Below, one piece after another: positions 3,080 through 22,452 of a stretch of 33,645 nt of DNA. The stretch is from Dongiaceae bacterium (lineage in GTDB: Bacteria; Pseudomonadota; Alphaproteobacteria; Dongiales; Dongiaceae). The notes below the pieces were generated by a model. The model ran no database searches, was not told where the DNA came from, and was given only the letters and a program-made list of their open reading frames with translations. The DNA lies in contig DASYRS010000318.1 of NCBI GenBank assembly GCA_036004205.1, positions 1 to 33,645 on the forward strand. Direction: 5' to 3'. The position numbers were made by a program, and so were the translations under genes. Numbering within the stretch: the first letter of the stretch is position 1; each line of letters begins with the position of its first letter.

Positions 3080-5176
3080 GCCCGCGACTCGGCTGCCTTG
3101 CCAATCCATACCGCAGTGTCATGAAACACCGCACCGCCGTTTGGCAAGCCCGCGTCGTCGCTGGTCAGGGTGTTGATGCCGTTGCCGCCCACGAAGGCAG
3201 CATTGGGCCAGATCGACTCGACCACCACGACCCCCGCCAGCAGGCCGTCGAACGGCTTCACGTGGAGAAAGACCCGGCCCCGGTCATTGCCGATTTCCGC
3301 CAGGTCGCCCTCGGCCAGCCCGAGTCGCGCGGCATCGGCCGGGTGGAGCAGCAAGGTCGGCCTCCCTTCCCGCTTTTTCGATCCCGGCGTCTCGGTGAAG
3401 GTGGAATTGAGGAAGGAGCGGGCCGGGGCAGTCACCATCCGGAACGGCCGCTCCGGCGTCGGCGCATCGAACACCGGCGCCATGTCCGGCAAGGCCGGCA
3501 GCCGCGCGTGATCCTTTCCGATCTTGGCCCAGTCGGCCTTGAAGTGGAATTTCTTGTCGGGATGGCCGAAGCCGTTCTGGAAATGCGCCGTGTCGAAATC
3601 GAGCGCGCATTCCTGCCAGTGCTTCTGGTGGATCTCGTCCGGTCCCGGCCAGCCGGAACGCTTCAGAGTCTCCGCGATGATCTCCCACTCGGTCATGCCA
3701 AAGGCCGGATGCTGGCAACCCAGGCGCCTGGCGAGCTCGCAGATCACGTAGTGGTTGGTGCGCGCTTCGGCGTAGGGCTCGACCACCTTGCGCGTCACCT
3801 GCAGGAAGGTGTGGCCGCTGCCGTAGTAGATATCGTTATGCTCCAGGAACGTGGTGGCCGGCAGCACGATGTCCGCCATCGCCGCCGTCTCGGTCATGAA
3901 TTGCTCGTGCACGCAGGTGAACAGGTCAGAACGTGAGAAGCCCTGCCGCACCAGGTTGGTGTTGGGGCAGACCATCATCGGATTGGTGTTCTGCACGATC
4001 AACGCCATGACCGGCGGGCCATCGCCCAGATCGCGCTTGTCGCCGGTCAGGACTGCGCCCAGGCGCGATTGATCCAGCTCGCGCACGTTGCGGTCCAGCA
4101 GCTCCTTGCCGACGATCATCGAATTGTCGATGTGATAGAGCGAGCGATTGAAATAGAGCGCGCCGCCGCCTTTGTGCGCCCAGGCGCCCGTGATCGTCGG
4201 CAGGCACGTGACGGCATGCAGCGACACCGCGCCGTTGCGGGCGCGCGCGAAGCCGAAGCCGACGCGGATATAGGCGCGCTTGGTCCTGCCATAGAGCCGT
4301 GCGAACTCGCGGATGGTCTCGGCCGGGACGCCGGTCACGCCCGCCGCCCATTCCGGCGTCCGGTCCCGCACATGCGCCTCGAGCGCGGCGGGATCGTCGG
4401 CATGGCGCGCCATGTAGTCTCGGTCGGCGTAGCCTTCCGCGAACAGCACGTGCATCATGCCCAGCACCAAGGCCGCGTCGGTGCCGGGCCGGAGCATGAT
4501 GTGCTGGTCGGCAACTTCCGCCGTCGGATTGCGGTAGGGGTCGACCGAGACGAACTTGGCGCCGCGCTCTTTCCGGGCGCGCGCCACATGGGTCATGACA
4601 TTGACCTGGGTCGACACCGGATTGGTGCCCCAGGCGATGATGAGGTCGCTGTCCGCGATCTCGCGCGCATCGACGCCGCGCATGATTCCGACGCCGGCCA
4701 TCCAGCCGGAATCGGACAGCGCGACGCATATCGTGCTTTTCTGCTGCGAGTATTTCTTCTCGTGGCGCAGGCGATGGATGCCGTCGCGCTGCACCAGTCC
4801 CATCGTGCCGGCGTAGTAGTACGGCCAGACCGATTCCGCGCCCCATTGCTGCTCGGCCCTGATGAACCGCTCGGCGGTTTCATCGAGCGCCTGCTCCCAT
4901 GAGATCGGCGCGAAGGCGGCAAGGCCGACGCCCTTGTCGCCGACACGCTTCATCGGCCGTGCCAGCCGGTCCGGATGATGCTGCCGCTCGGCGTAGCGCG
5001 CGACCTTGGCGCAGATCACCCCCCGCGGTGTACGGGTTGGCCTTCGCGCCATGCACGCGGCCGATGCGCGTCGGGCTGAGGCGCTCGACCTCCAGCGCGC
5101 AGGTGGAGGGGCAATCGTGCGGACAGGCGCTGTGCACGATGTCCGGCTTGACGTTGGGGACGGCGTCCAAGGGCAT
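3076..5176 (-). pseudogene. Molybdopterin-dependent oxidoreductase (bis-MGD family, N-terminal 4Fe-4S), frameshifted at 5019-5024; possibly a sequencing error
   Basis: The N-terminus MPLD...ACPHDCPSTCALEV...NPYTAG is in ORF 4880..5212. The continuation GVICAKVARYAER...STIC...WGTNP...HPADAARLG is in ORF 3076..5052. Removing one G from the G6 run joins them into a 699-aa protein. Confidence 0.85.
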
Positions 5177-5289
5177 GAAAATGTCGATGCCGCACTTGGC
5201 GGCGCGCTCCAAAATACCTAGAGTGCCGCGACTTTACCCGCCGGAGCCCGGCATTTCCAGGGCCCCGACGGCTCATTCGGGGATGTATC

Positions 5290-6174
5290 GTGACAAGTTT
5301 GGCGGCTACGGGCCAGCTTCAGTTCAAGCCCAAGTTGGGCGTGTTCTACATCATGGCTGCCATTGCCGTCCTTGGCAGCACCGATGCCATCGTCAAATGG
5401 TCGACCACCAACATCGATCCGATCCAGATCGGATTCTCCCGCTTTGTCGTCTCGCTGATCATGGTGCTCTGGCTGGTCGGCCGGTCGCAACCCGGCTTCG
5501 CGGCGCTGCGCACCAAGCGCCCGCTGGAGCATGCCGCGCGCGCTTTCTGTGCCGCGGTCGAGCTGACGGCCTTCTATTTCGCGATCAGCCTCATCCCGTT
5601 GCCGACGGCGATGAGCATCGTCGCGACATCTCCCATCTTCGGCACGCTGCTCGGCGTGGTGTTCCTGCGCGAGCGGTTGCGGCTCGGCGGATGGATCGCC
5701 GTCTTTACGGGCTTCGCAGGCATGTTGCTGGTGGTACAACCGGAAGAAGGCGTCAACAGCTTCTATGGCACGATCGCCGTCCTCACCTCGGTCTTTCTCT
5801 GGTGCTTCGCGCAACTGTTCGCGCGGCGCCTCAGCACGACGGAGAGCAACCTTTCCATCCTGTTCTATTACGCGACCGGCGGGGTCATCATCCTCGGCCT
5901 CGCCACGCCGTTCGTGTGGGTCAATCCGACGCCGGTCGAATGGGCGGCAATCCTGGCGGTGGGGATCTTCGGCTGCATCGGGCAGTATTTCCTGATCCTC
6001 GCGCTGCGCTATGCGCCGATGTCGCTGCTGGCGCCGTTCGAGTATAGCGCGCTCGTCTGGGCCAGCCTCTATGGCTACATCTTCTGGCGCGACGTGCTGG
6101 GGCCGATCGCCATTGTCGGCGTCGTCATCATCGTCGCGGCCTGCCTCTACATCACGCGCACCATGGAGCATTGA
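5290..6174 (+). CDS. DMT/EamA family transporter
   Basis: About 10 hydrophobic helices in two repeats; FLRERL and [13 protein letters not shown] motifs. Confidence 0.9.
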
Positions 6175-7304
6175 TGGCGAGCGATGTGATCGACCGGGCG
6201 GAGGTCGATTGCGTCGTCGTCGGCGCAGGTGTCATCGGCCTCGCCTGCGCGCGGCGGATCGCGCAAACCGGCCGCGAAGTCCTGATCCTGGAATCCGAAA
6301 GCGACATCGGATCGGGCGTTTCGGCGCGCAACAGCGAGGTCATCCATGCCGGCATCTATTATCCGACCGGCAGCCTGAAAGCGCGGCTGTGCGTCGCCGG
6401 CCGGGAACGGCTTTACGCCTATTGCGCGGAGCATGGTGTCACCGCGCGCCAGGTCGGCAAGCTGGTGGTTGCAACCGCGCCCGAACAGGTACCGGCCTTG
6501 CACACGCTGATGGGCCAGGCGCGCGCCAACAACGTCGACGATCTGGCGCTGCTCGGTGCGGACCAGGCGCGTGCGTTGGAACCGCAGCTCTCCTGCGTCG
6601 CCGCCTTTCATTCGCCTTCGACCGGCATCGTCGACACGCACGGATTGATGCTGAGCCTGTTGGGCGAAGCGGAAGCACACGGCGCCACCCTGGCGCGCCG
6701 CGCGCCGGTGGAACGCGGATGGATCGAGGACGATGGGCGGATCACGCTGGCGGTCGTCGGCGCCGAACCAATGCAGGTGACGGCGCGCCAGTTTGTCAAC
6801 GCGGCCGGCCTTGGGGCGCAAGCCATCGCGCGCAGCTTTGAAGCCTATCCGGCCGATCGCATCCCCCCGCTCCACTATGCCAAGGGCAACTATTTCAGCC
6901 TGGCCGGCCGATCGCCCTTCTCGCGCCTGATCTATCCGATGCCGGAAGCTGCGGGCCTCGGCGTGCACCTCACGCTCGACCTGGCGGGGCAGGCCCGCTT
7001 CGGCCCGGACGTCGAATGGGTGGATGGCCTCGACTACGATGTCGACCCACGGCGTGGCGATGCCTTCTACGCCGCGATCCGCAGCTATTGGCCGAGCTTG
7101 CGCGACGGCGCGCTGCAGCCGGCCTATGCCGGCATCCGGCCCAAGATCCAGGCCGCGGGCATGCCGGCCGCGGACTTCCGTATCGACGGGCCGGAGCTGC
7201 ACGGCCTCCCCGGCCAGGTCCACCTCTATGGCATCGAGTCCCCCGGCCTGACCTCGTGTCTCGCCATCGCCGATGAGGTCGCCGGTCGACTCGATCTTGG
7301 ATAA
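6174..7304 (+). CDS. FAD-dependent oxidoreductase, L-2-hydroxyglutarate dehydrogenase (LhgO/L2HGDH)-like
   Basis: [51 protein letters not shown] and GIESPGLTS. The ATG at 6174 overlaps the DMT stop. Confidence 0.88.
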
Positions 7305-7546: not shown

Positions 7547-9049
7547 ATGGCACAGCAGACTGGCCCGTCCGGCGTCAGCTATGAAAAGGTTGGCACCGAA
7601 TATTTCGAGAAGCGAAGCCTGCGCCGGCACGCCCGCGCATGGTCACTCTGGGCGCTGGGGGTGGGCGCCGTCATCTCGGGGGACTTCTTCGGCTGGAACT
7701 ATGGCCTCGCCACCGGCGGCTTCGGTGGCCTCTTCATCGCCACCGTCATCGTCAGCGTCATGTATATCGGCCTCTGCTATTGCTTGGCCGAGATGTCGCC
7801 CGCTTTGCCCCATACTGGCGGCGCCTATTCCTTCGCCCGCACCGCCATGGGGCCCTGGGGCGGATTCCTCACCGGCCTCGGCGAGAACATGGAATACGTC
7901 ATCACGCCGGGCGTCATCATCATTTCGGTCGGCGCCTATCTGCAGACGATCTTCAGCACGCCGCCCGAATGGCAGTGGGTCTGGTGGGTCATCGTCTTCG
8001 TCGTGTTCGTCGGCCTCAATGTCTGGGGCGTTGAGCTGTCGTTCAAGTTCACCGTGGTGATCACGTTCATCGCCATGGCGATTCTGATCTTCTTCTTCCT
8101 CGCCGCATTGTCGGCCTTCGACTTCAACACCCTCGCGCTCAACATCGGAATCGGACCAGATGGTGCGGCGGTCGAGTTGCCGGAGGGCGGCGGACCGTTC
8201 AATCCGTTCGGGATCGACGGCATCTTGAAGTCGCTGCCTTTCGCGATCTGGTTCCTGCTCGCCATCGAGCAGCTTCCGCTCGCGGCCGAGGAGAGCCATG
8301 ACCCCAAGAAGGACATGCCGAAGGGCCTGCTCTGGGGCATCGCGACGCTCGTTGTGCTCGGGTTCCTGACGCTCATCTTCAACGCCGCGGTGCCGCCCGG
8401 CGCTTTCAAGCTCGGCAGCTCCGCGCAGCCGCTGCTCGACGGCCTCATCGGCATCTTCGGCGAAGGCCTGGGCACCAAGCTGCTGGCGCTGCTGGCGGTC
8501 GCGGGCCTCATCGCCAGCTTCCACACCATCATCTACGCCTATGGCCGCAACATCTACTCGCTGAGCCGGGCGGGCTACTTCCCGCGCTGGATGTCGATCA
8601 CCCACGGCGCGCGCAAGACGCCGCACGTCGCGCTCATCCTCGGCGGCGTCGTGGGCCTCGTGCTGGCTCTGTTCATGAACTACGTGTTCGGAACCGCCTC
8701 CTATGTCGGCGCCGCCCTGCTCAACATGGCGGTGTTCGGCGCGGTGATCTCGTACACCATGCAGGGGTTGTCGTACTACATCCTGAAGCGCGACTTCCCG
8801 ACCATCGAGCGGCCCTATGTCAGCCCGCTTGGCAACCTCGGCGCCTTTGCGTGCATGGCCATAGCGCTGCTGACGCTGATCTACATGTTCCTGAACGAAG
8901 CCTACCGGCCGGGCTTATGGGGAGCGCTCATCTGGTATGGCCTCGGCGTGCTCTACTTTGCCTTCGCCGGCCGGCATAAGCTGGTGCTTTCGCCCGAGGA
9001 GCAGTTCGCCATGACCCACCGCAAGGCGGCGACTGGTGCCAAGGCTTAG
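7547..9049 (+). CDS. APC-superfamily amino acid/amine permease, ethanolamine permease (Eat)-like
   Basis: LWALGVGAVISGDFFGWNYGL, AEMSPALPHTGGAYSFAR, IWFLLAIEQLPLAAEE and GLIASFH; purine-rich RBS GGAGGGGGA before ATG 7547; about 12 TM segments. Confidence 0.85.
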   Translation: MAQQTGPSGVSYEKVGTEYFEKRSLRRHARAWSLWALGVGAVISGDFFGWNYGLATGGFGGLFIATVIVSVMYIGLCYCLAEMSPALPHTGGAYSFARTAMGPWGGFLTGLGENMEYVITPGVIIISVGAYLQTIFSTPPEWQWVWWVIVFVVFVGLNVWGVELSFKFTVVITFIAMAILIFFFLAALSAFDFNTLALNIGIGPDGAAVELPEGGGPFNPFGIDGILKSLPFAIWFLLAIEQLPLAAEESHDPKKDMPKGLLWGIATLVVLGFLTLIFNAAVPPGAFKLGSSAQPLLDGLIGIFGEGLGTKLLALLAVAGLIASFHTIIYAYGRNIYSLSRAGYFPRWMSITHGARKTPHVALILGGVVGLVLALFMNYVFGTASYVGAALLNMAVFGAVISYTMQGLSYYILKRDFPTIERPYVSPLGNLGAFACMAIALLTLIYMFLNEAYRPGLWGALIWYGLGVLYFAFAGRHKLVLSPEEQFAMTHRKAATGAKA

Positions 9050-9148: not shown

Positions 9149-9177
9149 TTTACAAGCAAATAGCGCCTGACCATACT
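9149..9177 (+). promoter_or_regulatory. Putative sigma70 promoter of the second permease
   Basis: TTTACA-17 nt-CATACT. Confidence 0.55.
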
Positions 9178-9377
9178 CCCGCCACGCGGCGTCTGAGGCA
9201 TGGACGGTCGCGGTCGGAGTCGCAGTTCTCGCGACGAAGGGGGGTTCGGGCCGCTCAGGCGCGACGGACAGCTTCAACGGCAAATAGAACTTGGCAGGTC
9301 AGCCAAACAGCCGGCCACGATCGAACAATCGATCCTGGTGTCGTTCGACTGCGAGACAGAAAAAGAGGGGAGCTTAC

Positions 9378-11084
9378 ATGGCAGACCAACAACATCACGA
9401 AGCTGACGTGAAGCAGCTTCATTCGATGGGATATTCGCAGGAACTGTCCCGACGCATGGGACTGTTCCAGAATTTCGCTATCTCATTCTCGATCATCTGC
9501 ATCCTGGCAGGCGGTATCACCGCGTTTCCGCTCTCCTTGAGCGGCGCCGGCGGTGCCTCGCTCGGCATCGGCTGGCCGCTGGCCACGGTCTTCGCCCTGC
9601 TGGTTGCCTGCGCGCTTGGCCAGATTGCCTCGGCTTATCCTACCGCCGGCGGCATCTATCACTGGGCTTCGATGCTCGGAAACAAGACCTATGGCTGGAT
9701 CGCGGCATGGCTGAACTTGTTCGGCCTGCTGTTTGTCGTCTCGTCGGTGAATTTCGGCGTGTTCCTGCTGTTCCGCGACCTGTTCCTGGCCGACGCGCTC
9801 GGCATGGATGTCAGCGGCTGGGTCACCGCCGCCCCGTTCGATCACGGCTGGTGGGTGCAAACTATCGTTATCAGTATCGTCACGATCGCCCAGGCGCTCA
9901 TCAACCACTTCGGCATAAAGCTGACGACGAAGCTGACCGATATCGCCGGCTACATCATCTTCGCAGGAAGCGTCGTCCTGATCATCGCGTTGCTGGTGAA
10001 TGCGCCCAGCTTTGAGATCAGCCGCCTATTCACGTTCAAGGACTACACCGGCGACGCCGGCGGCGGCGTCTGGGCGCCCCCGGCAAGCGACCGTTGGTTG
10101 GCGAGTTTCATGCCGGTCGTCGGTGTCGCTTTCTACCTGGCGCTGCTACAAGGCGTCTATACGATCACCGGCTTCGATGCTTCGGGCCATACCTCCGAAG
10201 AGACCCGCGGCGCCGCGACGGAAGTTCCGAAAGGCATGATCCATTCCGTGTTCTGGTCGGGTGTCTTCGGCTACGTCATGGTTTGCGCCTTCGTGCTGGT
10301 GCTGCCCTCCGTCGACGAGGGTGCCGCCAAGGGCTGGGGCTCGTTCACTTTCGTCATCGATCAGATCCATCCGACCTTCTTGAAGAACGTGCTGATCGTG
10401 ACGATTGTCGTTTCGAACTTCCTCTGCGCACTCGCCGGTCTCACTTCCACCTCGCGCATGCTTTACGCCTTCTCGCGCGACGGCGGTATCCCGTGGTTCT
10501 CCAAATCGCTGCGGCAGGTCAGCAAGGCACATCGTGTACCGGCGCATGCGATCTGGGTCAGTGCCGTTCTGGCGATTGTCGCCACGCTCTATGGCGACGC
10601 TTTTGTGGTGCTGTCGACTGGTTGCGCCGTCTTCCTCTATGTCTCCTACGTGATGCCGATCGCAGGTGGCTTCATCGCCGAAGGGAAGTCGTGGACCAAG
10701 AAGGGCCCCTTCAATCTCGGAGGTCTGTCGAAGCTAGTTGCCTTGGCGGCAATCATAGGATGCGTCCTCCTGATCGTTGTCGGCGTGCAGCCGCCCAACG
10801 AGAGAGTCGGCTATCTGCTGGTTCTCGGCGTGCTCGTCTTGCTGACGATCTGGTATCCAAAGGTGCCGGGCGTGGTGTTCGCGTTGATCACCACCGCGAT
10901 CATCTACTGGCTGTTCGCGCCATCCATCGTCTGGCTGGTGATCTTCGCGGTCATTCTGCTGGCTCTGGGGTGGTTCGTAGACGAGCGCGCCCGCTTCCAG
11001 GGCCCGCCGCTGACCGAAGAGGCGGTGAAGGCTCGCCAAGCCGAAATTGCCCGCGAGGAAGCGGCCATGGGCGGCGCCGGCTAA
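9378..11084 (+). CDS. APC-superfamily permease (GABA/amine/polyamine type)
   Basis: LHSMGYSQELSRRMGLFQNFAISFSIICIL, SAYPTAGGIYHW, GFDASGHTSEET and SRMLYAFSRDGG; RBS GAGGGGAG. Confidence 0.9.
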   Translation: MADQQHHEADVKQLHSMGYSQELSRRMGLFQNFAISFSIICILAGGITAFPLSLSGAGGASLGIGWPLATVFALLVACALGQIASAYPTAGGIYHWASMLGNKTYGWIAAWLNLFGLLFVVSSVNFGVFLLFRDLFLADALGMDVSGWVTAAPFDHGWWVQTIVISIVTIAQALINHFGIKLTTKLTDIAGYIIFAGSVVLIIALLVNAPSFEISRLFTFKDYTGDAGGGVWAPPASDRWLASFMPVVGVAFYLALLQGVYTITGFDASGHTSEETRGAATEVPKGMIHSVFWSGVFGYVMVCAFVLVLPSVDEGAAKGWGSFTFVIDQIHPTFLKNVLIVTIVVSNFLCALAGLTSTSRMLYAFSRDGGIPWFSKSLRQVSKAHRVPAHAIWVSAVLAIVATLYGDAFVVLSTGCAVFLYVSYVMPIAGGFIAEGKSWTKKGPFNLGGLSKLVALAAIIGCVLLIVVGVQPPNERVGYLLVLGVLVLLTIWYPKVPGVVFALITTAIIYWLFAPSIVWLVIFAVILLALGWFVDERARFQGPPLTEEAVKARQAEIAREEAAMGGAG

Positions 11085-11113
11085 CAACCGGTTCTTATTA
11101 CGAGATAACTGGG

Positions 11114-11144
11114 GGGGCCGCTCTTCGTAGCGGCCCCTTTTTTT
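11114..11144 (+). terminator. Rho-independent terminator
   Basis: GGGGCCGCT-CTTCGT-AGCGGCCCC-T7. Confidence 0.88.
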
Positions 11145-11159
11145 GCGACCTTTTGCGGC

Positions 11160-11188
11160 TTGACGGCACTATTGGGCCGACACAGACT
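11160..11188 (+). promoter_or_regulatory. Putative sigma70 promoter driving the riboswitch leader
   Basis: TTGACG-17 nt-CAGACT, about 20 nt before aptamer 1. Confidence 0.55.
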
Positions 11189-11204
11189 TGCCCCCTGTTT
11201 CGCC

Positions 11205-11430
11205 GCTGTCGGGAGAGACCGCGCCCCCAAATGGCAGTCTACAAGGGGGATCGCGGCGCCGAAGGAGCAACCGCCCCCGGAACCTCTCAGGCAAAAGGAC
11301 CGATCGCGGCCGAATACTCTGGAAAGCGGGCATGGCGGCGGTAAAGCCGCCGTGCCTCACCGACGGAGTAAGCCGGCCCACCCGAGTTCGGGGGTCGGTG
11401 AATCTCTCAGGTCCAATGGACAGAGGGGGG
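11205..11430 (+). ncRNA. Tandem glycine riboswitch (two aptamers)
   Basis: Aptamer 1: GGAGAGA...CGCCGAAGGAGCAA...CTCTCAGGCAAAAGGAC. Aptamer 2: CTCTGGAAAG...CACCGACGGAGTAA...AATCTCTCAGG...GACAGAG. These are the conserved blocks of the glycine (gcvT) riboswitch. Confidence 0.93.
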
Positions 11431-11486
11431 ACCAACCTTCCGCTCAACACGGGAGGACGGACCACACGTCACCGGGGGGAAGCTTG

Positions 11487-12584
11487 ATGGCCGGAGAAGA
11501 AGATCATCGCGCGTGGCGGGCCCCCTCTGTGGCGGAGACCTTGCGCGCCCCTGCTTCGCCCTTTGCCCTCGATCCCGAGCGACGCGCCGCCCTCAGCCTG
11601 GTTCTGATGAACGGTTTTGCGCTGGGCGATCTGGCGCGCCTGCTCGACGTCTTCACCTCCGCCAACGAATTGTCGCAGCGCCGCGCCTTCGGGTGGGAGG
11701 TCGTGGCGATTTCCGGCCGTTCGGTCGCCAGCTCCGCCGGCATCCCCGTCGCGGCCGACGGCGACGTGACGGAACTGCGCCCGCTGTCCACGGTGATTGT
11801 CTTCAGCGATGCCGATGCGTCGGGCGACGATTGCGCCGGCCTCGCCGCCTGGCTCAGCGCGCACCCGGCCTCGATCCAGCGCCTCGGCGGCATCGGCGGT
11901 GGGTGTTCCGTCCTCGGGCGCATTTCCGCCATGCCGAAGGAACGCGCTCGTGGAGCGGCTCAGCGCAAGGAGATGTTCTGGCGCAAGGACGATTTCTTCG
12001 GCTGCCGCGGCGGCTGCGCGACCTCGGATTTCGCGCTCGCCAATGTCGAGGCGCTGCTGGGTTCCGCCGTCGCCCAGCAGGTCATGATGCGCCTGGCGCG
12101 CCAGCGCGTGCGCAAGAAGATCGAGCCAGCCGCCGACCAGCAGCAATCGATCGAGACCCAGGTCGCGCCGCCGATCAAGCGCGCCGTCGCGCTGATGCGC
12201 AACACGGTGTCGGATCCCGTCCCCCTGCCGAAGATCGCGGCGGAAGCCGGCATACACCTGCGGCACTTGGAGCGGCTGTTCCACCGCCATCTCGGCGTCA
12301 GCCCGCGCGGCTACTATCAGCGCCTCCGCCTGGCGCGTGCGCGCGATCTCGTCCAGGGCACCATGTTGGGGCTGGCGCGGGTGGCGGAAGCGGTGGGTTT
12401 CGACTCGCTTTCGCATTTCTCGAAATGCTATATGGACGCCCACGGAGTGAGGCCGAGCGAGGACCGCCAGCGTCACTTCACCACGCCCGGCGACATGCCG
12501 GGTGACGGCCTCACGGGGGACGCGCCAACACTCACCGAACCACCGACCAAACGCCCATCCGGCGCGCGTCGCCACGCCGCCTAG
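11487..12584 (+). CDS. GlxA/GbdR-family AraC transcriptional regulator with a degenerate DJ-1/PfpI-like domain
   Basis: N-terminal LVLMNGF...ANELSQRRAFGWEVVAISGRSVASSAG; C-terminal AraC HTH RHLERLFHRHLGVSPRGYY...VGFDSLSHFSKCY. Start moved to ATG 11487 because the ORF-track extension lies over the riboswitch. Confidence 0.85.
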   Translation: MAGEEDHRAWRAPSVAETLRAPASPFALDPERRAALSLVLMNGFALGDLARLLDVFTSANELSQRRAFGWEVVAISGRSVASSAGIPVAADGDVTELRPLSTVIVFSDADASGDDCAGLAAWLSAHPASIQRLGGIGGGCSVLGRISAMPKERARGAAQRKEMFWRKDDFFGCRGGCATSDFALANVEALLGSAVAQQVMMRLARQRVRKKIEPAADQQQSIETQVAPPIKRAVALMRNTVSDPVPLPKIAAEAGIHLRHLERLFHRHLGVSPRGYYQRLRLARARDLVQGTMLGLARVAEAVGFDSLSHFSKCYMDAHGVRPSEDRQRHFTTPGDMPGDGLTGDAPTLTEPPTKRPSGARRHAA

Positions 12585-12631
12585 AGTCCAATCACGATAT
12601 AAATCAAGACGACAAAACGGGGGATTACGTC

Positions 12632-14005
12632 ATGCCTTTGAAGCCGGAGCAGGTGAAGAGCGTCGCTCACGCCAAGAAGATCGTTGAGGAACGCGGCCTC
12701 ACCCACGTCAAGGTCGGGGTGTTCGACGGCGATGCCATCCTGCGCGGCAAATACATGTCGAAGGCGAAGTTCCTTTCCGCGCTCGATGGCGGCTTCGGAT
12801 TCTGCGACGTTGTGCTGGGCTGGGACAGCAACGACCAATTGTTCGACAACGTGAAATACACCGGCTGGCACACCGCCTATCCCGATGCGTGGGTGCGGGT
12901 GATCCCGGAGACCTGCCGCGAGATTCCGTTCGAGGATGGGATGCTGTTCTTCCTCGCCGAGTTCGTGAACAAGGCGGAAGAGATATGCCCGCGCGGCGTG
13001 CTGCGCCGCGTGCTCGATCGGGCCGCGAAGATGGGCTATGAGGCCTATTCCTCGGCCGAGTACGAGTTTTTCATGTTCGACGAAACGCCGGAGAGCGTGC
13101 GCGAGAAGGGCTTCCGCAACCTGACGCCGATGACGCCCGGCTATTTCGGTTATTCGATGCTGCGCGGCTCGGTCTGGGCCGAGCTCTATCACGAGATCCT
13201 CGATACCTGCGAAAAGATGCGCATGCCGATCGAGGGCCTGCACACCGAGACCGGCCCCGGCGTCCTTGAAGCGGCCCTCGCCTTCGACAAGGCGTTGGAG
13301 AGCGCCGACCGCGCCGCCTTGTTCAAGACCTTCACGAAAGTGCTGGCGCAGCGCCGCGGCCTGATGGCGACCTTCATGGCGAAGTGGTCGAACAACTGGC
13401 CCGGCCAGAGCGGCCACATCCATGTCAGCCTGAAAGGCAAGGACGGCAAGTCGGTCTTCTACGATGCCAAGAAGCCGCACTGCATGAGCGACAAGCAGCG
13501 CTGGTTCGTCGGCGGCCAGCAGGCCCTGATGCCGGAGCTGCTCGGCATGGTGAGCTGCACGGTCAACTCCTATTCGCGCCTGATCCCCGGCTTCTGGGCG
13601 CCGACCAACGCGACCTGGGGCGTCGAGAACCGCACCTGTGCCCTGCGCGTCATTCCGGGATCGGAAAAATCGCAGCGCGTCGAATATCGCATCGCCGCCG
13701 CCGACATGAACCCCTACCTCGCCATGTCGGTCGCGATCGGCTCAGGCCTCTACGGCATCGAGAACAAGATCGAGCCGATGCCGCCCATCGTCGGCAACTC
13801 CTACGACATGAAGCACCCGGCGAAGCTCGACCTGCCCCGCACTTTGTGGGAAGCGGCCCAGTGCTTGCGCAAGTCGAAGGCGGCGGCAGACCTGTTCGGC
13901 GAAGCCTTCGTCGAGCACTGGGCTTCGACCCGCGACTGGGAGGAGCGCGAGTTCCGCAAGCACATCACCGACTGGGAACTGCAGCGTTATTTCGAGATCA
14001 TCTGA
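12632..14005 (+). CDS. Glutamine synthetase-like gamma-glutamylamide synthetase
   Basis: EYEFF, HTETGPGVLE, SGHIHVS, NSYSRL, ENRTCALR and RVEYR...NPY. The flap motif is GFWAP rather than the GYEAP of true GS. Confidence 0.9.
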   Translation: MPLKPEQVKSVAHAKKIVEERGLTHVKVGVFDGDAILRGKYMSKAKFLSALDGGFGFCDVVLGWDSNDQLFDNVKYTGWHTAYPDAWVRVIPETCREIPFEDGMLFFLAEFVNKAEEICPRGVLRRVLDRAAKMGYEAYSSAEYEFFMFDETPESVREKGFRNLTPMTPGYFGYSMLRGSVWAELYHEILDTCEKMRMPIEGLHTETGPGVLEAALAFDKALESADRAALFKTFTKVLAQRRGLMATFMAKWSNNWPGQSGHIHVSLKGKDGKSVFYDAKKPHCMSDKQRWFVGGQQALMPELLGMVSCTVNSYSRLIPGFWAPTNATWGVENRTCALRVIPGSEKSQRVEYRIAAADMNPYLAMSVAIGSGLYGIENKIEPMPPIVGNSYDMKHPAKLDLPRTLWEAAQCLRKSKAAADLFGEAFVEHWASTRDWEEREFRKHITDWELQRYFEII

Positions 14006-14020
14006 CGGACGACGGACATC

Positions 14021-15409
14021 ATGGCCTCCATCCAGAAAACCATCACCCCGATCGACAACAGCGTCTATGTCGAGCGGCCCTATGCAACGCCGGCGGAGAT
14101 CGCGGCCACCCTGAAAGCGGCCGCCGAGGCGCAGCGCAAGTGGAAGTCGACGCCAATCGCCGAGCGCGCGAAGATCCTCGGCAAGGCGATCGATATCTTC
14201 CTGACGCACAAGGACCAGCACGCCGAGCAGATCACGCGCCAGATGGGCCGCCCGATCGCGCAAAGCCCGGGCGAGATGCGCGGCTTCGAGGAGCGCGCGC
14301 GCTACATGATCCAGGTCGCGGGCGAAGCCCTCGCCGACATCGAGGCCACGGACAAGCCCGGCTTCGTGCGCTTCATCCGCCGCGAACCGCTGGGCGTCGT
14401 CTTCATCGTGGCGCCGTGGAACTATCCGTACCTGACCTCGGTCAACGGCGTGGTGCCTGCGCTGATGGCGGGCAACGCCGTGGTCTTGAAGCACTCCGCC
14501 CAGACGCCGCTGTGCGCCGAAGGCTTTCAGCAGGCGTTCGATGCAGCCGGCCTGCCCAAGGGCCTGTTCCAGCATCTGGTGCTGACGCATGACGACACGG
14601 CCAAGGTGATCGCGGCGCCCGAAGTCGCCTACTGCAACTTCACCGGCTCGGTCGCCGGCGGGCATGCCGTGCAGCAAGCCGCGCTCGGCAAGTTCATGGG
14701 CCTTGGCCTGGAGCTGGGCGGCAAGGACCCGGCTTATGTGCGCGCCGACGCCAATCTGGATCACGCGGTCGAGAACCTGGTCGATGGCGCGATGTTCAAT
14801 TCTGGTCAGTGCTGCTGTGCGATCGAGCGCATCTACGTGCACGAAAAGCTGTTCGACAAGTTTGTGGACGGCTTTGTGGATCTCACAAAAAAATACAAGC
14901 TCGGCAATCCGCTCGACACCAATACCAACCTCGGACCCATGGTGCGCACCTCCGCCGCCGAGTTCGTGCGCGGCCAGATCGCCGATGCGGTGAAGCGCGG
15001 CGCCAAGGCGCTGATCGATCCCAAGAGCTTCGCGGCCGACAAGCCCGGCACCCCGTACCTGGCACCGCAGGTGCTGGTGAATGTCGATCATGCCATGGGC
15101 GTGATGTCGGAGGAGAGCTTCGGCCCCGTCATCGGCATCATGAAAGTGAAGTCGGATGACGAGGCGGTCCGCTTGATGAACGATAGCAAATACGGCCTCA
15201 CCTGCGCGCTCTGGACCTCGGACACGGACGAAGCGGAGAAGATCGGCGACCGGCTCGAAACCGGAACGGTCTACATGAATCGCTGCGATTATCTGGATCC
15301 GGCCCTGGCCTGGGTCGGCGTCAAGGATTCGGGGCGCGGCGCCACTTTGAGCCGAGTCGGCTACGAGATGCTGACAAGGCCCAAGTCGTTCCACCTCAGG
15401 AAGATTTAG
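14021..15409 (+). CDS. Aldehyde dehydrogenase family protein
   Basis: APWNYP, FTGSVAGG, LELGGKDP, FNSGQCCCAIER and EESFGPV. Confidence 0.95.
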   Translation: MASIQKTITPIDNSVYVERPYATPAEIAATLKAAAEAQRKWKSTPIAERAKILGKAIDIFLTHKDQHAEQITRQMGRPIAQSPGEMRGFEERARYMIQVAGEALADIEATDKPGFVRFIRREPLGVVFIVAPWNYPYLTSVNGVVPALMAGNAVVLKHSAQTPLCAEGFQQAFDAAGLPKGLFQHLVLTHDDTAKVIAAPEVAYCNFTGSVAGGHAVQQAALGKFMGLGLELGGKDPAYVRADANLDHAVENLVDGAMFNSGQCCCAIERIYVHEKLFDKFVDGFVDLTKKYKLGNPLDTNTNLGPMVRTSAAEFVRGQIADAVKRGAKALIDPKSFAADKPGTPYLAPQVLVNVDHAMGVMSEESFGPVIGIMKVKSDDEAVRLMNDSKYGLTCALWTSDTDEAEKIGDRLETGTVYMNRCDYLDPALAWVGVKDSGRGATLSRVGYEMLTRPKSFHLRKI

Positions 15410-15469
15410 AGCCGCAGGCCCATTCCCCGCCCCTGGACAGACCCTCAAACCCCTGCAAATCTGCCGGTC

Positions 15470-16831
15470 GTGAGGGACTCCATCGCAAATAGCAGGGTGG
15501 TTATTATCGGCGGCGGGGTGGTCGGTTGCGCCATTTTCCGGCGCCTGGCCATGGCCGGGTTGGAGCCCATTCTGCTGGAGGCGGCGTCCGACATCCTGGA
15601 CGGCGCCAGCAAGGGCAACAGCGCCCTGCTCCACACCGGGTTCGACGCACCGGAGAACAGCATCGAGCTCTCCTGCATCCAGGCGGGCTATCGCGAGTAT
15701 CTGGCGATCAGGGGCCACCTCAACCTGCCGCTGGTGGAAAGCGGCGCGCTGGTGGTGGCGTGGGACGAAGAACAGCTCGCCAAATTGCCGGTGATCGTCG
15801 AGAAGGCGCACCGCAACGGCGTCGCCGCCGCGGTGCAGATCGACCGCAACGAACTGCGCAAGCGCGAGCCGTTCCTGAGCGCCCGCGGCCTCGGCGCGGT
15901 CCATGTTCCGGGCGAGCACATTATCGATCCCTGGTCCGCGCCGCTTGCCTACGCGCATCAGGGGCTGGCGCATAACGGGCGCATCCTCCGGCGCTGCCGC
16001 GTCACCGGCGGCGAATTCGATGGCTGGCGCTGGAATTTGCAGACCACGCTGGGCGAAGTCACGGCCGGCGTGGTCATCAACGCCGCCGGCAATTACGGCG
16101 ATCTGGTGGAAGCCATCAATCAGGAAAGCCCCTTCACCATCACGCCGCGCAAGGGCCAGTTCGTCGTGTTCGACAAGCCGGCGGTCAAGCTGCTGCACGC
16201 CATCATCCTGCCGGTGCCGACCGACCGCACCAAGGGCATCGTCGCCTGCCGCACGGTGTTCGGCAATCTGCTGGTGGGCCCGACAGCGGAGGATCAGCAG
16301 GACCGCGCGTGCGCCGAGGTTGACCATGCGACCTTGGAGCAGCTGATCGCCAAGGGCGTGGAGATGATCCCCGGCCTTGCGCGTCATTCCGTCAACGCGA
16401 TCTATGCCGGCCTGCGCCCCGCGACCCAGTTCAAGGATTATCAGATCGCGGTCAATCGCCAGCGCCGCTGGATCACCGCCGCCGGCATCCGTTCGACCGG
16501 CCTCACCTCCGCGCTCGGCATCGCCCAGATGGTCGGCCGGGGTTTCGCCGAGACCTTTGGCGGCATGCGCGAAGAGGAGCCGATCTGGACGCCGGTCCCC
16601 AATCTCGCGGAGGACCGGCCGCGCCAATATCTGACGCCGGCCGGCGGCGACATCGTGTGCCATTGCGAGTGGGTGACCCGGGGCGAGATCGAAGCCGCCC
16701 TCGGTGGCCCGTTGCCGGCCGGCGACCTCGGTGGCCTCAAGCGGCGCACGCGCTGCATGATGGGACGCTGCCAGGGCTTCTATTGCAGCGCCCAGGTCAT
16801 GGCGCTGGCGGAAGGCCGGCTGCAGCCATGA
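15470..16831 (+). CDS. FAD-dependent oxidoreductase, GlpA/glycerol-3-phosphate dehydrogenase-like, with a C-terminal BFD-like [2Fe-2S] domain
   Basis: IIGGGVVG, ASKGNSALLHTGFD, TKGI, VGPTAED, YAGLRPA and GIRSTGLTS; C-terminal CHCE...RRTRCMMGRCQGFYC. The GTG start is uncertain. Confidence 0.85.
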   Translation: MRDSIANSRVVIIGGGVVGCAIFRRLAMAGLEPILLEAASDILDGASKGNSALLHTGFDAPENSIELSCIQAGYREYLAIRGHLNLPLVESGALVVAWDEEQLAKLPVIVEKAHRNGVAAAVQIDRNELRKREPFLSARGLGAVHVPGEHIIDPWSAPLAYAHQGLAHNGRILRRCRVTGGEFDGWRWNLQTTLGEVTAGVVINAAGNYGDLVEAINQESPFTITPRKGQFVVFDKPAVKLLHAIILPVPTDRTKGIVACRTVFGNLLVGPTAEDQQDRACAEVDHATLEQLIAKGVEMIPGLARHSVNAIYAGLRPATQFKDYQIAVNRQRRWITAAGIRSTGLTSALGIAQMVGRGFAETFGGMREEEPIWTPVPNLAEDRPRQYLTPAGGDIVCHCEWVTRGEIEAALGGPLPAGDLGGLKRRTRCMMGRCQGFYCSAQVMALAEGRLQP

Positions 16832-18048
16832 CGAACACGAGCGATGTTCTGATCCTGGGTGGCGGGCCGGCGGGCCTCTCCTGCGCGCGTGCCCTGCGCG
16901 CCGTTGGTGTCCACAATGCGGTGGTGCTGGAGCGCGAGAGCGCGCTGGGCGGCATCCCGCGCCATTGCGGCCACCTCGGGTTCGGCTTGCGGGAGTTCGG
17001 CAAGGTCTATAGCGGCTCCGATTATGCCAAGCGCCTGGCCGACGAAGCGGTGGGCGCGGATCTGCGGTCCCGCATGACGGTCTTGAAGCTGGAGCCGGGC
17101 GGGCTGGTGCGCGCGACCGGTCCCAACGGCGCGGAGGATTTCCAGGCCAAGGCGGTGGTCCTGGCGTTCGGCGCGCGTGAAACGCCGCGCAGCGAGCGCC
17201 TCATCTCCGGCGGGCGGCCGTTCGGCGTGATGAATACCGGCGCCTTGCAGCAATTCGTCTATCTCCACGGCAAGTGCCCGTTCGAGCGGCCGGTCGTGAT
17301 AGGCAGCGAGCTGGTGGCGTTCTCCACGCTTCTGACCCTGCGCCATGTCGGCATCAAACCATTGGCCATCGTCGAGGAAAATGAGCGCATCACCGCGCAC
17401 CAGCCGGGCAAGTGGGTGGCGCGGCTGGGCTTCGGCGTCCCGGTGCTGACCGGCACCCGACTCATCCGGATCATCGGCCGGCAGAAGGTGACCGCGGTCG
17501 AGCTCGATCGCGGCTTCGGGCCGGAGCGCATGGAATGCGACGGCGTCATCCTGACCGGCCGGTTCCGCCCGGAGACCGCTTTGATCGCGCCCAGCCATGT
17601 CGAGATCGATCCCGGCACCGGCGGTCCGTCGATCGATGCCTACTTCCGCTGCTCCGATCATCACTATTTCGCCGCCGGCAACGTGCTGCGCGGCATCGAG
17701 ACGGCGGGACAATGCTGGCGCGAAGGCAAGGCGGTGGCGGAGATGGTGATGGCGCGGCTGGAAAACCGCCTGCCGCTGCGCCAGCCCGATGCCCGCGTCA
17801 CGCTGCGGGGACCGCTCACCTATGTCTATCCGCAGCGCATCTATCGCGACGCGCCCACCACGCATCCTCTGCTGTTCAAGGCGCGGGTGGCGCATGAAGT
17901 GCGCGGCCGGCTATCGGTCGTCGTCGATGGCAGCGTGGTATGGTCGCGCCGCATCTCCGCTTTGCCGGAGCGCCGCATCGCCTGGAAGCTGCCCTACCGG
18001 GACATGAGAAACTGCCAGCAGATCTCGGTGGAACTGGATGCCGCCTGA
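16828..18048 (+). CDS. NAD(P)/FAD-dependent oxidoreductase (pyridine nucleotide-disulphide oxidoreductase fold)
   Basis: DVLILGGGPAGL, LGGIPRHCGHLGFG, GARETPR and FAAGNVL; ATGA overlap with the upstream gene. Confidence 0.85.
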   Translation: MTNTSDVLILGGGPAGLSCARALRAVGVHNAVVLERESALGGIPRHCGHLGFGLREFGKVYSGSDYAKRLADEAVGADLRSRMTVLKLEPGGLVRATGPNGAEDFQAKAVVLAFGARETPRSERLISGGRPFGVMNTGALQQFVYLHGKCPFERPVVIGSELVAFSTLLTLRHVGIKPLAIVEENERITAHQPGKWVARLGFGVPVLTGTRLIRIIGRQKVTAVELDRGFGPERMECDGVILTGRFRPETALIAPSHVEIDPGTGGPSIDAYFRCSDHHYFAAGNVLRGIETAGQCWREGKAVAEMVMARLENRLPLRQPDARVTLRGPLTYVYPQRIYRDAPTTHPLLFKARVAHEVRGRLSVVVDGSVVWSRRISALPERRIAWKLPYRDMRNCQQISVELDAA

Positions 18049-19474
18049 GACCTCCGTCATCGCCATCGACCAGGGCACCACGGGCAGCAAGGTGCACCGG
18101 TTGCGCGGCGACGGCAGATTCGAGACCATCGCCGGCTTCGAGCATCGCCAGATCTATCCGCGGCCGGGCTGGGTCGAGCACGATCCGGAAGAGCTCGCGA
18201 GCCATGTCGAGGCCGCGCTCGACCGCGCCGGCGACGCCGCCGCCATCGGCATCGCGAACCAGGGCGAGACGGTCATCGCCTGGGACGCCGAGACCAAGCG
18301 GCCGATCCACAACGCCATCGTATGGCAGGACGCGCGCACCGCCGACGTCACCGAGCGGATGAAGGCGGACGGCGCCGAGGAGCTGACGCTCGGCATCGCC
18401 GGCCTGCCGCTCGATCCCTATTTCTCCGCCGCCAAGCTGCGCTGGCTGCTCGACAACGTGCCGGAAGCGAAGACGCTGCGCAGCGCAGGCCGCCTGCGTC
18501 TCGGTACCAGCGATTCCTTCTTCCTCGATCGCCTGACCGGCCGCTTTGCGACCGACGTCACCACCGCGTCGCGCACCAGCCTGATGAATCTCGAAACGTT
18601 GCAGTGGGATCAGCGCCTGGCCGACCTGTTCGGCGTGCCGATCGAATGCTTGCCGGAGATTCGCCCGACCGCCGGCCTGTTCGCCGAGGCGCGCGGCATC
18701 CCGGTGACCGCGAGCCTGGTAGACCAGCAGGCCGCCTTGTTCGGCCACGGCTGCCGGCGCAAGGGCGATGCCAAGATCACCTTCGGTACCGGCGCCTTTG
18801 CGCTGGCGGTCGCGGGCGCGGCCGCGCCGCGCGATGCCGAGAGCGGCCTCGAAGCCACCATCGCGTGGAAGATCGGCGATGCGCCCTCAGCCTACGCGCT
18901 GCAGGGCGGACTCTACAACGCGGCATCCGCGGTGAATTGGGCGCGCAGCCTCGGCCTGTTCGCCGATTACGCTGAGATCGATGATTTCGCCGGCGAATCG
19001 GCGATCGCGCGCGGCCTCGTGTTCGTGCCGGCGCTGAGCGGCCTCTCCTGCCCCTATTGGGACCGGCGCGCCGCCGGCCTGTGGCTCGGCATGGGGCTGG
19101 AGACGACCAGGGCCGACATGATGCAAGCCCTGCTCGAAGGCGTGGCGTTGCTGGCGGAAAAGGTGACGGCGGCGATCGACAAGCTCTCCCCCCTCGCCCC
19201 CGTGCTCTCCATCGATGGCGGCCTCACGCGCAACCGGTATTTCACACGCTTCCTGGCCGATGCCATGAACAAGCGCGTGCGCGTGCCCTCGAGCGCGGAG
19301 CTGACTGGCCTCGGCGCCGCGCAGCTCGCCATGATCGGCGCGGGCCTTGCCGACCTCGACACCTTGCCGCCGGCACCGCCGCCGAAGGCGGAGATCGCGC
19401 CAACCGCGCCGCTGTCCGCCGACCTGCACGCCAACTTCGGCGAAGCGGTGGCGCGCAGCAGGAACTGGCGATAG
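18038..19474 (+). CDS. FGGY-family carbohydrate kinase, glycerol-kinase-like
   Basis: IDQGTTGS, PGWVEHDP, NQGET, WQDART, YFSAAK, TASRT, DQQAALFG, KITFGTG and IDGG. Confidence 0.9.
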   Translation: MPPETSVIAIDQGTTGSKVHRLRGDGRFETIAGFEHRQIYPRPGWVEHDPEELASHVEAALDRAGDAAAIGIANQGETVIAWDAETKRPIHNAIVWQDARTADVTERMKADGAEELTLGIAGLPLDPYFSAAKLRWLLDNVPEAKTLRSAGRLRLGTSDSFFLDRLTGRFATDVTTASRTSLMNLETLQWDQRLADLFGVPIECLPEIRPTAGLFAEARGIPVTASLVDQQAALFGHGCRRKGDAKITFGTGAFALAVAGAAAPRDAESGLEATIAWKIGDAPSAYALQGGLYNAASAVNWARSLGLFADYAEIDDFAGESAIARGLVFVPALSGLSCPYWDRRAAGLWLGMGLETTRADMMQALLEGVALLAEKVTAAIDKLSPLAPVLSIDGGLTRNRYFTRFLADAMNKRVRVPSSAELTGLGAAQLAMIGAGLADLDTLPPAPPPKAEIAPTAPLSADLHANFGEAVARSRNWR

Positions 19475-21270: not shown

Positions 21271-22452
21271 ATGACCACCGACGCCGCCGCGCTTCGCGGC
21301 AATTGGAACTACCCGACCTCGGTCAAGTTCGGCTGCGGCCGCATCAAGGAGCTGGCCGATCATTGCAAGGCGCTGGGCATGAAGCGCCCGCTGCTGATCA
21401 CAGATCCCGGTCTCGCAAATCTGCCGATGATCAAGGACGCGATCGCACGCAACAACGCGGCGGGCGTGCCGACCGGCCTTTTCAGTAACGTGCAGGGCAA
21501 CCCCACCGGCAAGAATGTCGAGGACGGCATCGCGGCCTACAAGGCCGGCGGCCATGACGGCGTGATCGCGTTCGGCGGCGGCTCGGCGCTCGATGCGGCC
21601 AAGGCGGTCGCGCTGATGATCGGGCAGAAGCGGCCGATCTGGGATTACGAGGATATCGGCGATTGGTGGACCCGGGTCGATCCCAACGGCATCGCTACCA
21701 TCATCGCGGTGCCGACCACGTCGGGCACTGGCTCGGAAGTCGGCCGCGCCTCAGTCATCACCGACCAGGACAATCACGTGAAGAAGATCATCTTCCATCC
21801 GAAGATGCTGCCCTCCATCGTGATCGACGATCCGGAGCTAACCGTCGGCCTGCCGGCGCACATCACCGCCGCGACCGGCATGGATGCGCTCTCCCATTGC
21901 CTCGAAGCCTATTGCGCGCCGGGCTTCCATCCGCTGGCGGACGGCATCGCGCTTGAAGGCATGCGCCTCATCAAGGACGCGCTGCCGACAGCGGTGAAGG
22001 ACGGCAAGAACCTGGTCGCGCGCTCCAACATGATGGCGGCGGCCAGCATGGGCGCGACGGCGTTCCAGAAGGGCCTCGGCGGCATGCACGCCATCAGCCA
22101 CCCGCTGGGCGCGCTCTACAACACCCACCACGGCCTCACCAACGCGGTCGTGATGCCCTATGTGCTGGACTATAACCGCGCTGCGATCGACGAGAAGCTG
22201 ACGCGCCTCGCCGCCTTCCTGCGCCTGCCGAACCCGTCCTTCAAGGCGGTGCTGGATTGGGTGCTGGCGCTGCGCAAGGAGATCGGCATCCCGCACACGC
22301 TGAAGGAGATCGGCGTCGATGACAAGCAGGTCGACAAGGTGGCCGAGATGGCCGCCGCCGACCCCAGCGCCGGCGGCAACCCGATCCAGGTCGGCGCCAA
22401 GGAACTGCGCGTGATGTTCGTCAACGGCCTCGAAGGCAAGCTGGCGGCGTGA
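21271..22452 (+). CDS. Iron-containing alcohol dehydrogenase
   Basis: GGGSALD, PTTSGTGSE, and metal-ligand motifs DALSH, HAISH and HHG. Confidence 0.94.
   Translation: MTTDAAALRGNWNYPTSVKFGCGRIKELADHCKALGMKRPLLITDPGLANLPMIKDAIARNNAAGVPTGLFSNVQGNPTGKNVEDGIAAYKAGGHDGVIAFGGGSALDAAKAVALMIGQKRPIWDYEDIGDWWTRVDPNGIATIIAVPTTSGTGSEVGRASVITDQDNHVKKIIFHPKMLPSIVIDDPELTVGLPAHITAATGMDALSHCLEAYCAPGFHPLADGIALEGMRLIKDALPTAVKDGKNLVARSNMMAAASMGATAFQKGLGGMHAISHPLGALYNTHHGLTNAVVMPYVLDYNRAAIDEKLTRLAAFLRLPNPSFKAVLDWVLALRKEIGIPHTLKEIGVDDKQVDKVAEMAAADPSAGGNPIQVGAKELRVMFVNGLEGKLAA

Follow-up and report, generated by a model that had tools for sequence, protein, structure and literature searches.

We analysed a window of 33,645 nucleotides, the whole stretch considered here (contig DASYRS010000318.1, GenBank assembly GCA_036004205.1), from an alphaproteobacterium of the Dongiaceae, a family of soil bacteria, whose closest named relatives are also Dongiaceae; the assembly has a completeness of 73%. 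Our subject is a tandem glycine riboswitch in this window, which precedes the genes for an AraC-type regulator, a glutamine synthetase-like (GS-like) ligase and an aldehyde dehydrogenase (ALDH). The features of the locus, and the enzyme genes further downstream, are the following.

11111..11146, + strand: intrinsic terminator of the preceding permease gene, a hairpin (11111-11140) followed by a T run
11160..11188, + strand: predicted sigma-70-type promoter, with -35 TTGACG, 17 nt and -10 CAGACT (11183-11188)
11200..11312, + strand: glycine aptamer 1 (RF00504, 62.5 bits), with the polyC tract at 11274-11278 (P3b)
11313..11433, + strand: glycine aptamer 2 (RF00504, 41.9 bits), with the polyG tract at 11426-11430, the predicted P5 pseudoknot partner
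11429..11463, + strand: constant hairpin of the expression platform, which includes the CCTTCC/GGGAGG helix
11472..11482, + strand: ribosome-binding site CCGGGGGGAAG, complementary to 11274-11280
11487..12584, + strand: GATR/GlxA-type AraC regulator with a divergent sensor domain (ATG at 11487)
12632..14005, + strand: GS-like gamma-glutamyl-amine ligase, likely an ethanolamine gamma-glutamylase (from profiles, PDB matches and neighbourhood)
14021..15409, + strand: ALDH, likely a gamma-glutamyl-aminoacetaldehyde dehydrogenase (from profiles and its position after the ligase)
15470..19474, + strand: glycerol-3-phosphate (G3P)-oxidase-like gene, FAD oxidoreductase and glycerol-kinase-like gene, probably with their own promoter
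21271..22452, + strand: iron-containing alcohol dehydrogenase (Fe-ADH), likely a gamma-glutamylethanolamide dehydrogenase, probably with its own promoter

At the level of sequence, the tandem RNA is confirmed as a riboswitch of the glycine class. An earlier note, made from the letters alone, had read a terminator, a promoter-like element, two glycine aptamers, an AraC gene, a 47-nt gap, the ligase and the ALDH in this order; all are present, and the identity of the RNA is borne out by an Rfam scan of the window, in which the two aptamers are the sole matches and both exceed the gathering score of 32. No other glycine riboswitch was found in this incomplete assembly. The aptamers lie in the 5' leader, on the same strand as the downstream gene and behind the predicted promoter. 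The core of aptamer 1 is invariant and matches that of gcvT leaders, and the operon leaders are built (aptamers, hairpin, then Shine-Dalgarno (SD) sequence) like the gcvT leaders found in these genomes. In aptamer 2, a C replaces the A of the GAAGG motif, in the window as in many operon leaders, and this variant occurs likewise in three gcvT leaders.

A strict promoter scan did not pick up TTGACG-17-CAGACT, which we infer to be a promoter from its conservation: a script pattern recovers the spacing of its elements, with small variations, in 21/21 same-genus leaders, and also in 8/8 sister-genus leaders and 6/11 AraC-less ones. The terminator hairpin just upstream (-22.2 kcal/mol, z -3.3, none of 200 shuffles equally stable) is absent from the list of a simple scanner and present in most same-genus loci. 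Downstream, no U-tract terminator follows aptamer 2, as the earlier note had it, and on the + strand between the riboswitch and the end of the ALDH the sole entry of the terminator scan is a hairpin of 5 bp at 11782, within the AraC open reading frame (ORF). The riboswitch, the AraC gene, the ligase and the ALDH probably constitute one transcription unit in this genus. The 47-nt gap between the AraC and ligase ORFs is A-rich and is followed by an SD that belongs to the ligase, and the response of the ligase and the ALDH to the switch would rest on polarity.

To see what the riboswitch follows, we turn to its distribution. The 83 Dongiales genomes were searched for the ligase (62 with a match), for RF00504 and for the clade of the AraC regulator; the riboswitch-ligase tallies were made by hand from coordinates and checked on fetched regions, and 70 low-scoring RF00504 matches lie outside them. 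In 27 of the 62 genomes, the contig of the ligase carries the riboswitch upstream of it, in one of three layouts. The AraC gene lies between the two in 16 genomes (11 in the genus of the window, g1, and 5 in a sister genus, g8); the riboswitch directly precedes the ligase in 10 genomes that have no such AraC (g16); and in one genome (G019) it precedes an etoVWX-ligase-ALDH-ADH array. Three further loci are cut by contig ends (G011, G094, G097), the ligase matches of two genomes (G010, G091) are truncated and were not scored, and one genome without a riboswitch at the ligase (G100) is unpublished. The AraC gene is present without the riboswitch in G009, and 11 g16 genomes have neither. The link between riboswitch and operon is kept across four Dongiaceae genera, and the riboswitch tracks the ligase operon, not the regulator. 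Contrary to the earlier note's picture of a regulator under the riboswitch, the AraC is not its invariable target: loci that lack the AraC (the 10 genomes and one contig-cut locus) keep the riboswitch on their ligase operon, a transporter of the tripartite ATP-independent periplasmic (TRAP) type comes first in G019, and G009 keeps the regulator alone. Outside the Dongiales, in a sample of 401 genomes, the riboswitch is near the ligase in none of the 52 alphaproteobacteria with a ligase of at least 55% identity, some of these ligases being near contig ends; 49 of the 52 carry a glycine riboswitch elsewhere. In the Dongiales genomes with the operon leader, the second riboswitch precedes gcvT in 22 of 24 second loci, the other two ending at a contig edge, and there are four further same-genus gcvT-type leaders. 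One genome (G001) has two gcvT genes, each with a tandem glycine riboswitch of its own (L283, L284).

In the ligase tree, all the riboswitch loci fall in one clade (support 100), within which g16 is sister to g8 (85), and this suggests that g16 has lost the AraC gene. In the g16 leaders (L268-L278), an SD-like element that no start codon follows persists some 100 nt ahead of the ligase, a remnant that is consistent with such a loss. In these same loci, a C-rich, G-poor stretch, a possible Rho loading site, separates the SD-like element from a promoter-like element discussed below. In the leader tree, the G019 leader groups with the gcvT leaders of its own genus (100), the deep nodes being weak (47-77). 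This tree does not resolve a single origin of all the operon leaders, while the ligase tree gives one clade; there may have been one recruitment or two.

The ligase reaches 232.9 bits on TIGR00653, against a cut-off of 429.15, which places it outside true GlnA. It carries a Trp in the GF-x-AP motif where the GlnA of the same genome (contig C131) has a Glu, the residue of the GF-E-AP flap motif that we take to mark a true GlnA. By profile and motif, it is distinct from GlnA, and the assembly has 8 genes of the GS family, this one included. Its second-best sequence match in the PDB is Csal_0679 of Chromohalobacter salexigens (E 9e-57). Its neighbourhood was counted in the best 80 of 456 related loci: the ALDH comes next after the ligase in 78 of them, the Fe-ADH adjoins the ALDH in most distant loci, and an EtoX-type TRAP binding protein lies within 6 kb of the ligase in 42. 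These binding proteins match PDB 4UAB (E 1e-149 and 4e-168), which is Csal_0678 in complex with ethanolamine (PMC12410723, in part; here and below, these words mark a citation that covers only part of the source). The Phaeobacter MED193 operon induced on phosphorylethanolamine comprises etoVWX, a ligase, an ALDH and an ADH (PMC10132767, in part), and the transporter-ligase-ALDH-ADH order is the same. The ligase, ALDH and ADH are found clustered with an ethanolamine transporter, and they most likely form a route of ethanolamine gamma-glutamylation ending in glycine, the proposed end products of which are glycine and glutamate (PMC6529630, PMC9397018, both in part). Glycine would make sense as the signal because ethanolamine, the likely substrate, which the earlier note had not named, yields it. 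The breakdown of phosphatidylethanolamine releases glycerol together with ethanolamine (PMC9397018, in part), which would explain the glycerol genes of the cluster; the genes at 15470..19474 are likely the glycerol half of phospholipid breakdown, with an FGGY kinase and an oxidase that score below their family cut-offs.

Around these genes, other arrangements recur. The locus is carried by cultured Dongia strains, Dongia deserti (L059) and Dongia soli (L069). In the first of these (L059, 1243-4246), the EtoX-type TRAP operon is inverted with respect to the ligase operon and diverges from the riboswitch promoter. Beside the cluster in several genera (upstream of the transporter in L071, L073, L069 and L267), a LysR gene recurs together with a divergently oriented gene for an HpaB-like flavin monooxygenase, accompanied in some loci by RidA-family or DUF1028 genes.

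The direction of the switch can be read from published signatures. The pseudoknot between a polyC and a polyG tract characterizes more than 99% of the glycine-dehydrogenase switches and 66% of the aminomethyltransferase ones, and none of the OFF symporter switches (PMC7161355, in part). It was found in all 38 matched operon leaders (40 given) and in 27/27 gcvT leaders, each tract being one base shorter in genus g7. Furthermore, aptamer 1 is the invariant aptamer in the gcv-type ON switches (PMC6944388, in part), as it is here. On the published signature, an ON switch is the direction that we consider quite probable. As to the mechanism, CCGGGGGGAAG is complementary to the C-tract of aptamer 1 and the two G's that follow it (11274-11280); the C-tract duplex is of -17.3 kcal/mol with the SD and of -12.0 with the G-tract of P5, and in 21/21 same-genus leaders no other part of aptamer 1 pairs better with the SD than the C-tract. 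Of the genome's 808 long ORFs that have an SD, only 18 are preceded by CCGGGG. When P1 of aptamer 2 was forced, the SD became more accessible in 17/19 and 8/9 AraC-headed leaders, in a test whose gcvT control failed. That the C-tract and the SD are the exact competing partners is a proposition of this folding model for which we see about even chances. Two further attempts gave no support: a test of cognate against non-cognate duplexes across lineages gave no specificity, and the 5' P1 strand of aptamer 2, considered as an anti-SD, has a pairing probability of about 0 in same-genus leaders. The earlier note had looked for the switch in CCTTCC, pairing either with GGGAGG or with the ribosome-binding region. 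The former pairing stands (p 0.86-0.99) and the latter does not (p 0.05 or less), and the CCTTCC/GGGAGG helix, which lies 30 nt upstream of the start codon and has two-sided changes at 4 of 13 consensus pairs among 17 leaders, probably acts as a constant hairpin and not as an anti-SD. The control that the note suggested, through Rho or at the ribosome-binding site, is plausible.

We can then propose the following model, to which we give a probability of roughly 0.55: a glycine ON switch heads the AraC-ligase-ALDH unit and raises ethanolamine gamma-glutamylation. Ethanolamine would be imported and glutamylated by the ligase, the Fe-ADH and the ALDH would oxidise the product to gamma-glutamylglycine, and an unlinked enzyme would hydrolyse the latter to glycine. 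With glycine bound, the C-tract of aptamer 1 and the G-tract after aptamer 2 would form the P5 pseudoknot and leave the ribosome-binding site free; with no glycine, the C-tract would pair with the ribosome-binding site, the first ORF would go untranslated, and polarity would lower the ligase and the ALDH downstream. Since gcvT carries a near-identical leader in these genomes, glycine would turn on its source pathway and its sink alike. The AraC protein would be a conserved passenger, its level set by the riboswitch.

Several observations weigh against this model. On the side of the RNA, the ON-type shift appears in only 3/11, 2/3 and 4/10 of the gcvT control leaders; shuffled aptamers reach the strength of the SD:aptamer-1 duplex in 43% of 500 cases; this pairing dominates the ensemble in only 4 of 12 choices of transcript end; the C-tract is invariant, for which reason covariation cannot test its pairing; and the SD contexts differ in sister genera. 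On the side of transcription, the earlier note had held that an internal promoter would uncouple the riboswitch from the ligase. Among the placeable loci (6/11 in g1 and 4/6 in g8), none showed a consensus promoter ahead of the ligase, but 10 of the 11 AraC-less g16 loci have TTGCCG-N17/18-TAANNT between the riboswitch and the ligase, a promoter-like element that could alternatively be a hairpin. The Fe-ADH and the glycerol genes also seem self-promoted, which would leave only part of the pathway under the switch: in same-genus loci, the GTG of the G3P-oxidase-like gene is preceded, at a distance of about 10 nt, by a conserved TGGACA-17-AAATCT (within 15433-15470), and this position suggests a separate, nearly leaderless transcript. 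On the side of the pathway, the ligase is distant from Csal_0679, in a sister clade and not its close orthologue, and its weaker relatives (54-56% identity) sit in other neighbourhoods. The window has no EtoX and no gamma-glutamylglycine amidohydrolase, nor is there an FGase match within 6 kb in the 80 loci; five FGase genes are present elsewhere in the assembly (G000), unlinked to the cluster. Finally, the assembly, at 73% completeness, yielded no gcvT.

The regulator deserves attention in its own right. It has an HTH_18 match and matches the GbdR model below its cut-off (E 3e-41), with no match to PF01965, and its N-terminal domain retains a DJ-1/GATase-1-like fold (top fold match 3GRA, E 6e-11). 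Its clade comprises 58 proteins, after which the scores drop sharply to ordinary GlxA matches; in a metagenome scan, 14 of the 80 returned loci were of or near this clade and the other 66, distant AraC matches, were dropped. The Cys-elbow and His-Trp motifs are found in none of the 58 members, versus 57/62 and 61/62 of the other matches. Within the Dongiales, the clade occurs in 19 of the 83 genomes (E 1e-136 or better, the next match being 6e-70), always at this locus and in 18 of the 19 accompanied by the riboswitch. The AraC gene is under purifying selection, with 80-117 synonymous versus 14-28 amino-acid-changing codons in 7 comparisons; its helix-turn-helix (HTH) domain is conserved despite an overall identity of about 38%, and the N-terminal domain, with a set of invariant residues peculiar to it, may recognise a new ligand or serve only in dimerisation. 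Inspection of the upstream regions gave no AraC-specific operator: GTCGC elements, tested as GGTCGC-type half-sites, lie upstream of the permease, yet also in loci without this AraC. In a relative (L056, 1977-2700; L032, 6012-6650), a second promoter, riboswitch and internally deleted AraC gene, its N-terminus fused to a decaying HTH, lie upstream of the permease; this second copy is a local duplication.

The constancy of this association and the selection on the protein would suit an RNA-to-protein cascade, which the earlier note had proposed. In the form considered here, the riboswitch would govern just the quantity of AraC protein, which would then activate or repress the transporter and enzyme genes, and the switch would not act directly on the ligase and the ALDH; the separate SD of the ligase and the conserved HTH agree with this too. 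We regard the cascade as unlikely, since the riboswitch precedes the ligase or the transporter without such an AraC in 11 genomes, inspection of the upstream regions showed no operator specific to the AraC-bearing loci, and G009 keeps the AraC without the riboswitch. A variant in which a ligand-blind AraC relays glycine to the genes of ethanolamine and glycerol uptake and catabolism is likewise unlikely. A further possibility concerns the sign of the switch: glycine, as the end product, would repress the pathway, as in transporter-linked glycine riboswitches. Repression would be logical for a glycine-producing route, the riboswitch does stand ahead of a transporter in G019, and the folding test of the ON direction was not validated by its control; against these points, the polyC/polyG signature that the OFF symporter switches lack is present here, aptamer 1 is the invariant one as in the gcv ON switches, and the architecture is that of the gcvT leaders, which makes an OFF switch improbable.

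Other doubts bear on the ligands. The switch could act as described on a pathway for a different amino alcohol or amine, such as an aminopropanediol, and the linked glycerol-kinase-like and G3P-oxidase-like genes, the low scores of the FGGY kinase and oxidase, the distance from Csal_0679 and the other neighbourhoods of the weaker ligase relatives all leave room for it. Such a substrate seems to us a poor prospect in view of the EtoX homologues in 42 of 80 loci, the ethanolamine-permease-like gene in the window, the origin of glycerol and ethanolamine in the same phospholipid, and a glycine sensor that suits a glycine-yielding substrate. That the RNA itself has changed its ligand, for instance to ethanolamine or to a pathway intermediate, is very improbable: the gene context is unusual and GAAGG is altered in aptamer 2, but gcvT leaders share both that alteration and the aptamer-1 core.

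Upstream of the operon, the window contains the following genes.

2252-7304: MipZ ATPase, molybdopterin oxidoreductase, EamA transporter and L-2-hydroxyglutarate-oxidase-like gene (from profile matches)
7547..9049, + strand: ethanolamine-permease-like APC transporter, a separate upstream unit, with an ATG and its SD near 7547
9378..11084, + strand: second APC amino acid/amine permease, preceded by a promoter of its own, TTTACA-17-CATACT at 9149-9177

The molybdopterin oxidoreductase, the EamA transporter and the L-2-hydroxyglutarate-oxidase-like gene form a left flank that is kept in the genus. The first permease scores 373.2 bits on TIGR00908, just under the cut-off of 381.75, and the position of the second is taken in some relatives by an EtoX-type TRAP system. 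Downstream of its promoter, the second permease has a 200-nt leader (9178-9377) with two elements conserved among same-genus loci, the inverted repeat GTCGC-N7-GCGAC and a G-rich motif; other genera have GCGAC-N6-GTCGC. They might serve as an operator for a repressor or as an RNA element, and the Rfam scan of the window gave no match in 9178-9377.

Glycine riboswitches usually head genes of glycine breakdown or of transport, and riboswitches located before transcription factor genes are known in other classes. With the ON tandem glycine riboswitches of gcvT and gcvP, the present one shares two aptamers above the gathering score, the invariant aptamer-1 core, the polyC/polyG signature and a hairpin followed by an SD. 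What differs is the downstream context, where an AraC gene stands with the GS-like ligase and the ALDH, or else a TRAP transporter is found, in a pathway that would make glycine and not consume it. The context appears unusual, as the earlier note had supposed: in the context table of PMC7161355 (its supplement 3, searched by term, 4 of 5 supplement files being searchable), none of the 50 entries of 'AraC' stands first downstream, and there is no 'GlnA' or 'DctQ'. A RegPrecise survey (PMC3766115, in part, with one table row outside that part) lists grd, gcv, glyA, transporter and serine genes. Among the listings that we searched for glycine riboswitches with ethanolamine, with AraC and alphaproteobacteria, or in a regulator context, subscription papers being outside, no such arrangement was found. 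We are thus dealing with a known riboswitch class in a conserved, lineage-specific and apparently unreported context, on a pathway that is probably known.

This pathway has its counterparts in the ethanolamine gamma-glutamylation systems of Csal_0678/0679, of MED193 (etoVWX) and of Streptomyces coelicolor (GlnA4), with which it shares a transporter, a ligase, an ALDH and an Fe-ADH, and, in many loci, EtoX homologues. The published clusters are regulated by proteins, the product of an RpiR gene in MED193 and EpuRI in Streptomyces, and include an amidohydrolase (sources covered in part); the Dongiaceae cluster has a riboswitch, no amidohydrolase, additional glycerol genes and a ligase of a sister clade. 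It would then be a lineage that recruited a riboswitch for a pathway placed under protein regulators in other bacteria, and it would add a glycine-making catabolic route to the glycine riboswitch regulon, tied to the glycine cleavage system by the same RNA. Intermediates of gene order are visible, with the regulator present, with the regulator lost and its ribosome-binding site retained, or with the transporter first. Conversely, the riboswitch provides independent, circumstantial support for the idea that this widespread GS-like clade yields glycine.

The regulator, for its part, resembles the GATR AraC regulators GbdR, CdhR, CahR, ArgR and SouR (PMC5806209, bioRxiv 2021.11.02.466972) in its DJ-1-like fold, its AraC HTH and its location beside amine catabolic genes. 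Unlike them, it has no Cys-elbow, no His-Trp motifs and no PF01965 match; and whereas they are free-standing and ligand-activated, it is encoded behind a riboswitch. Ligand binding by GATR proteins has been called unresolved (bioRxiv 2021.11.02.466972), and this motif-less clade offers a natural comparison for it. If the AraC were indeed ligand-blind, it would be a transcription factor that has lost its own sensing and takes its input from a riboswitch.

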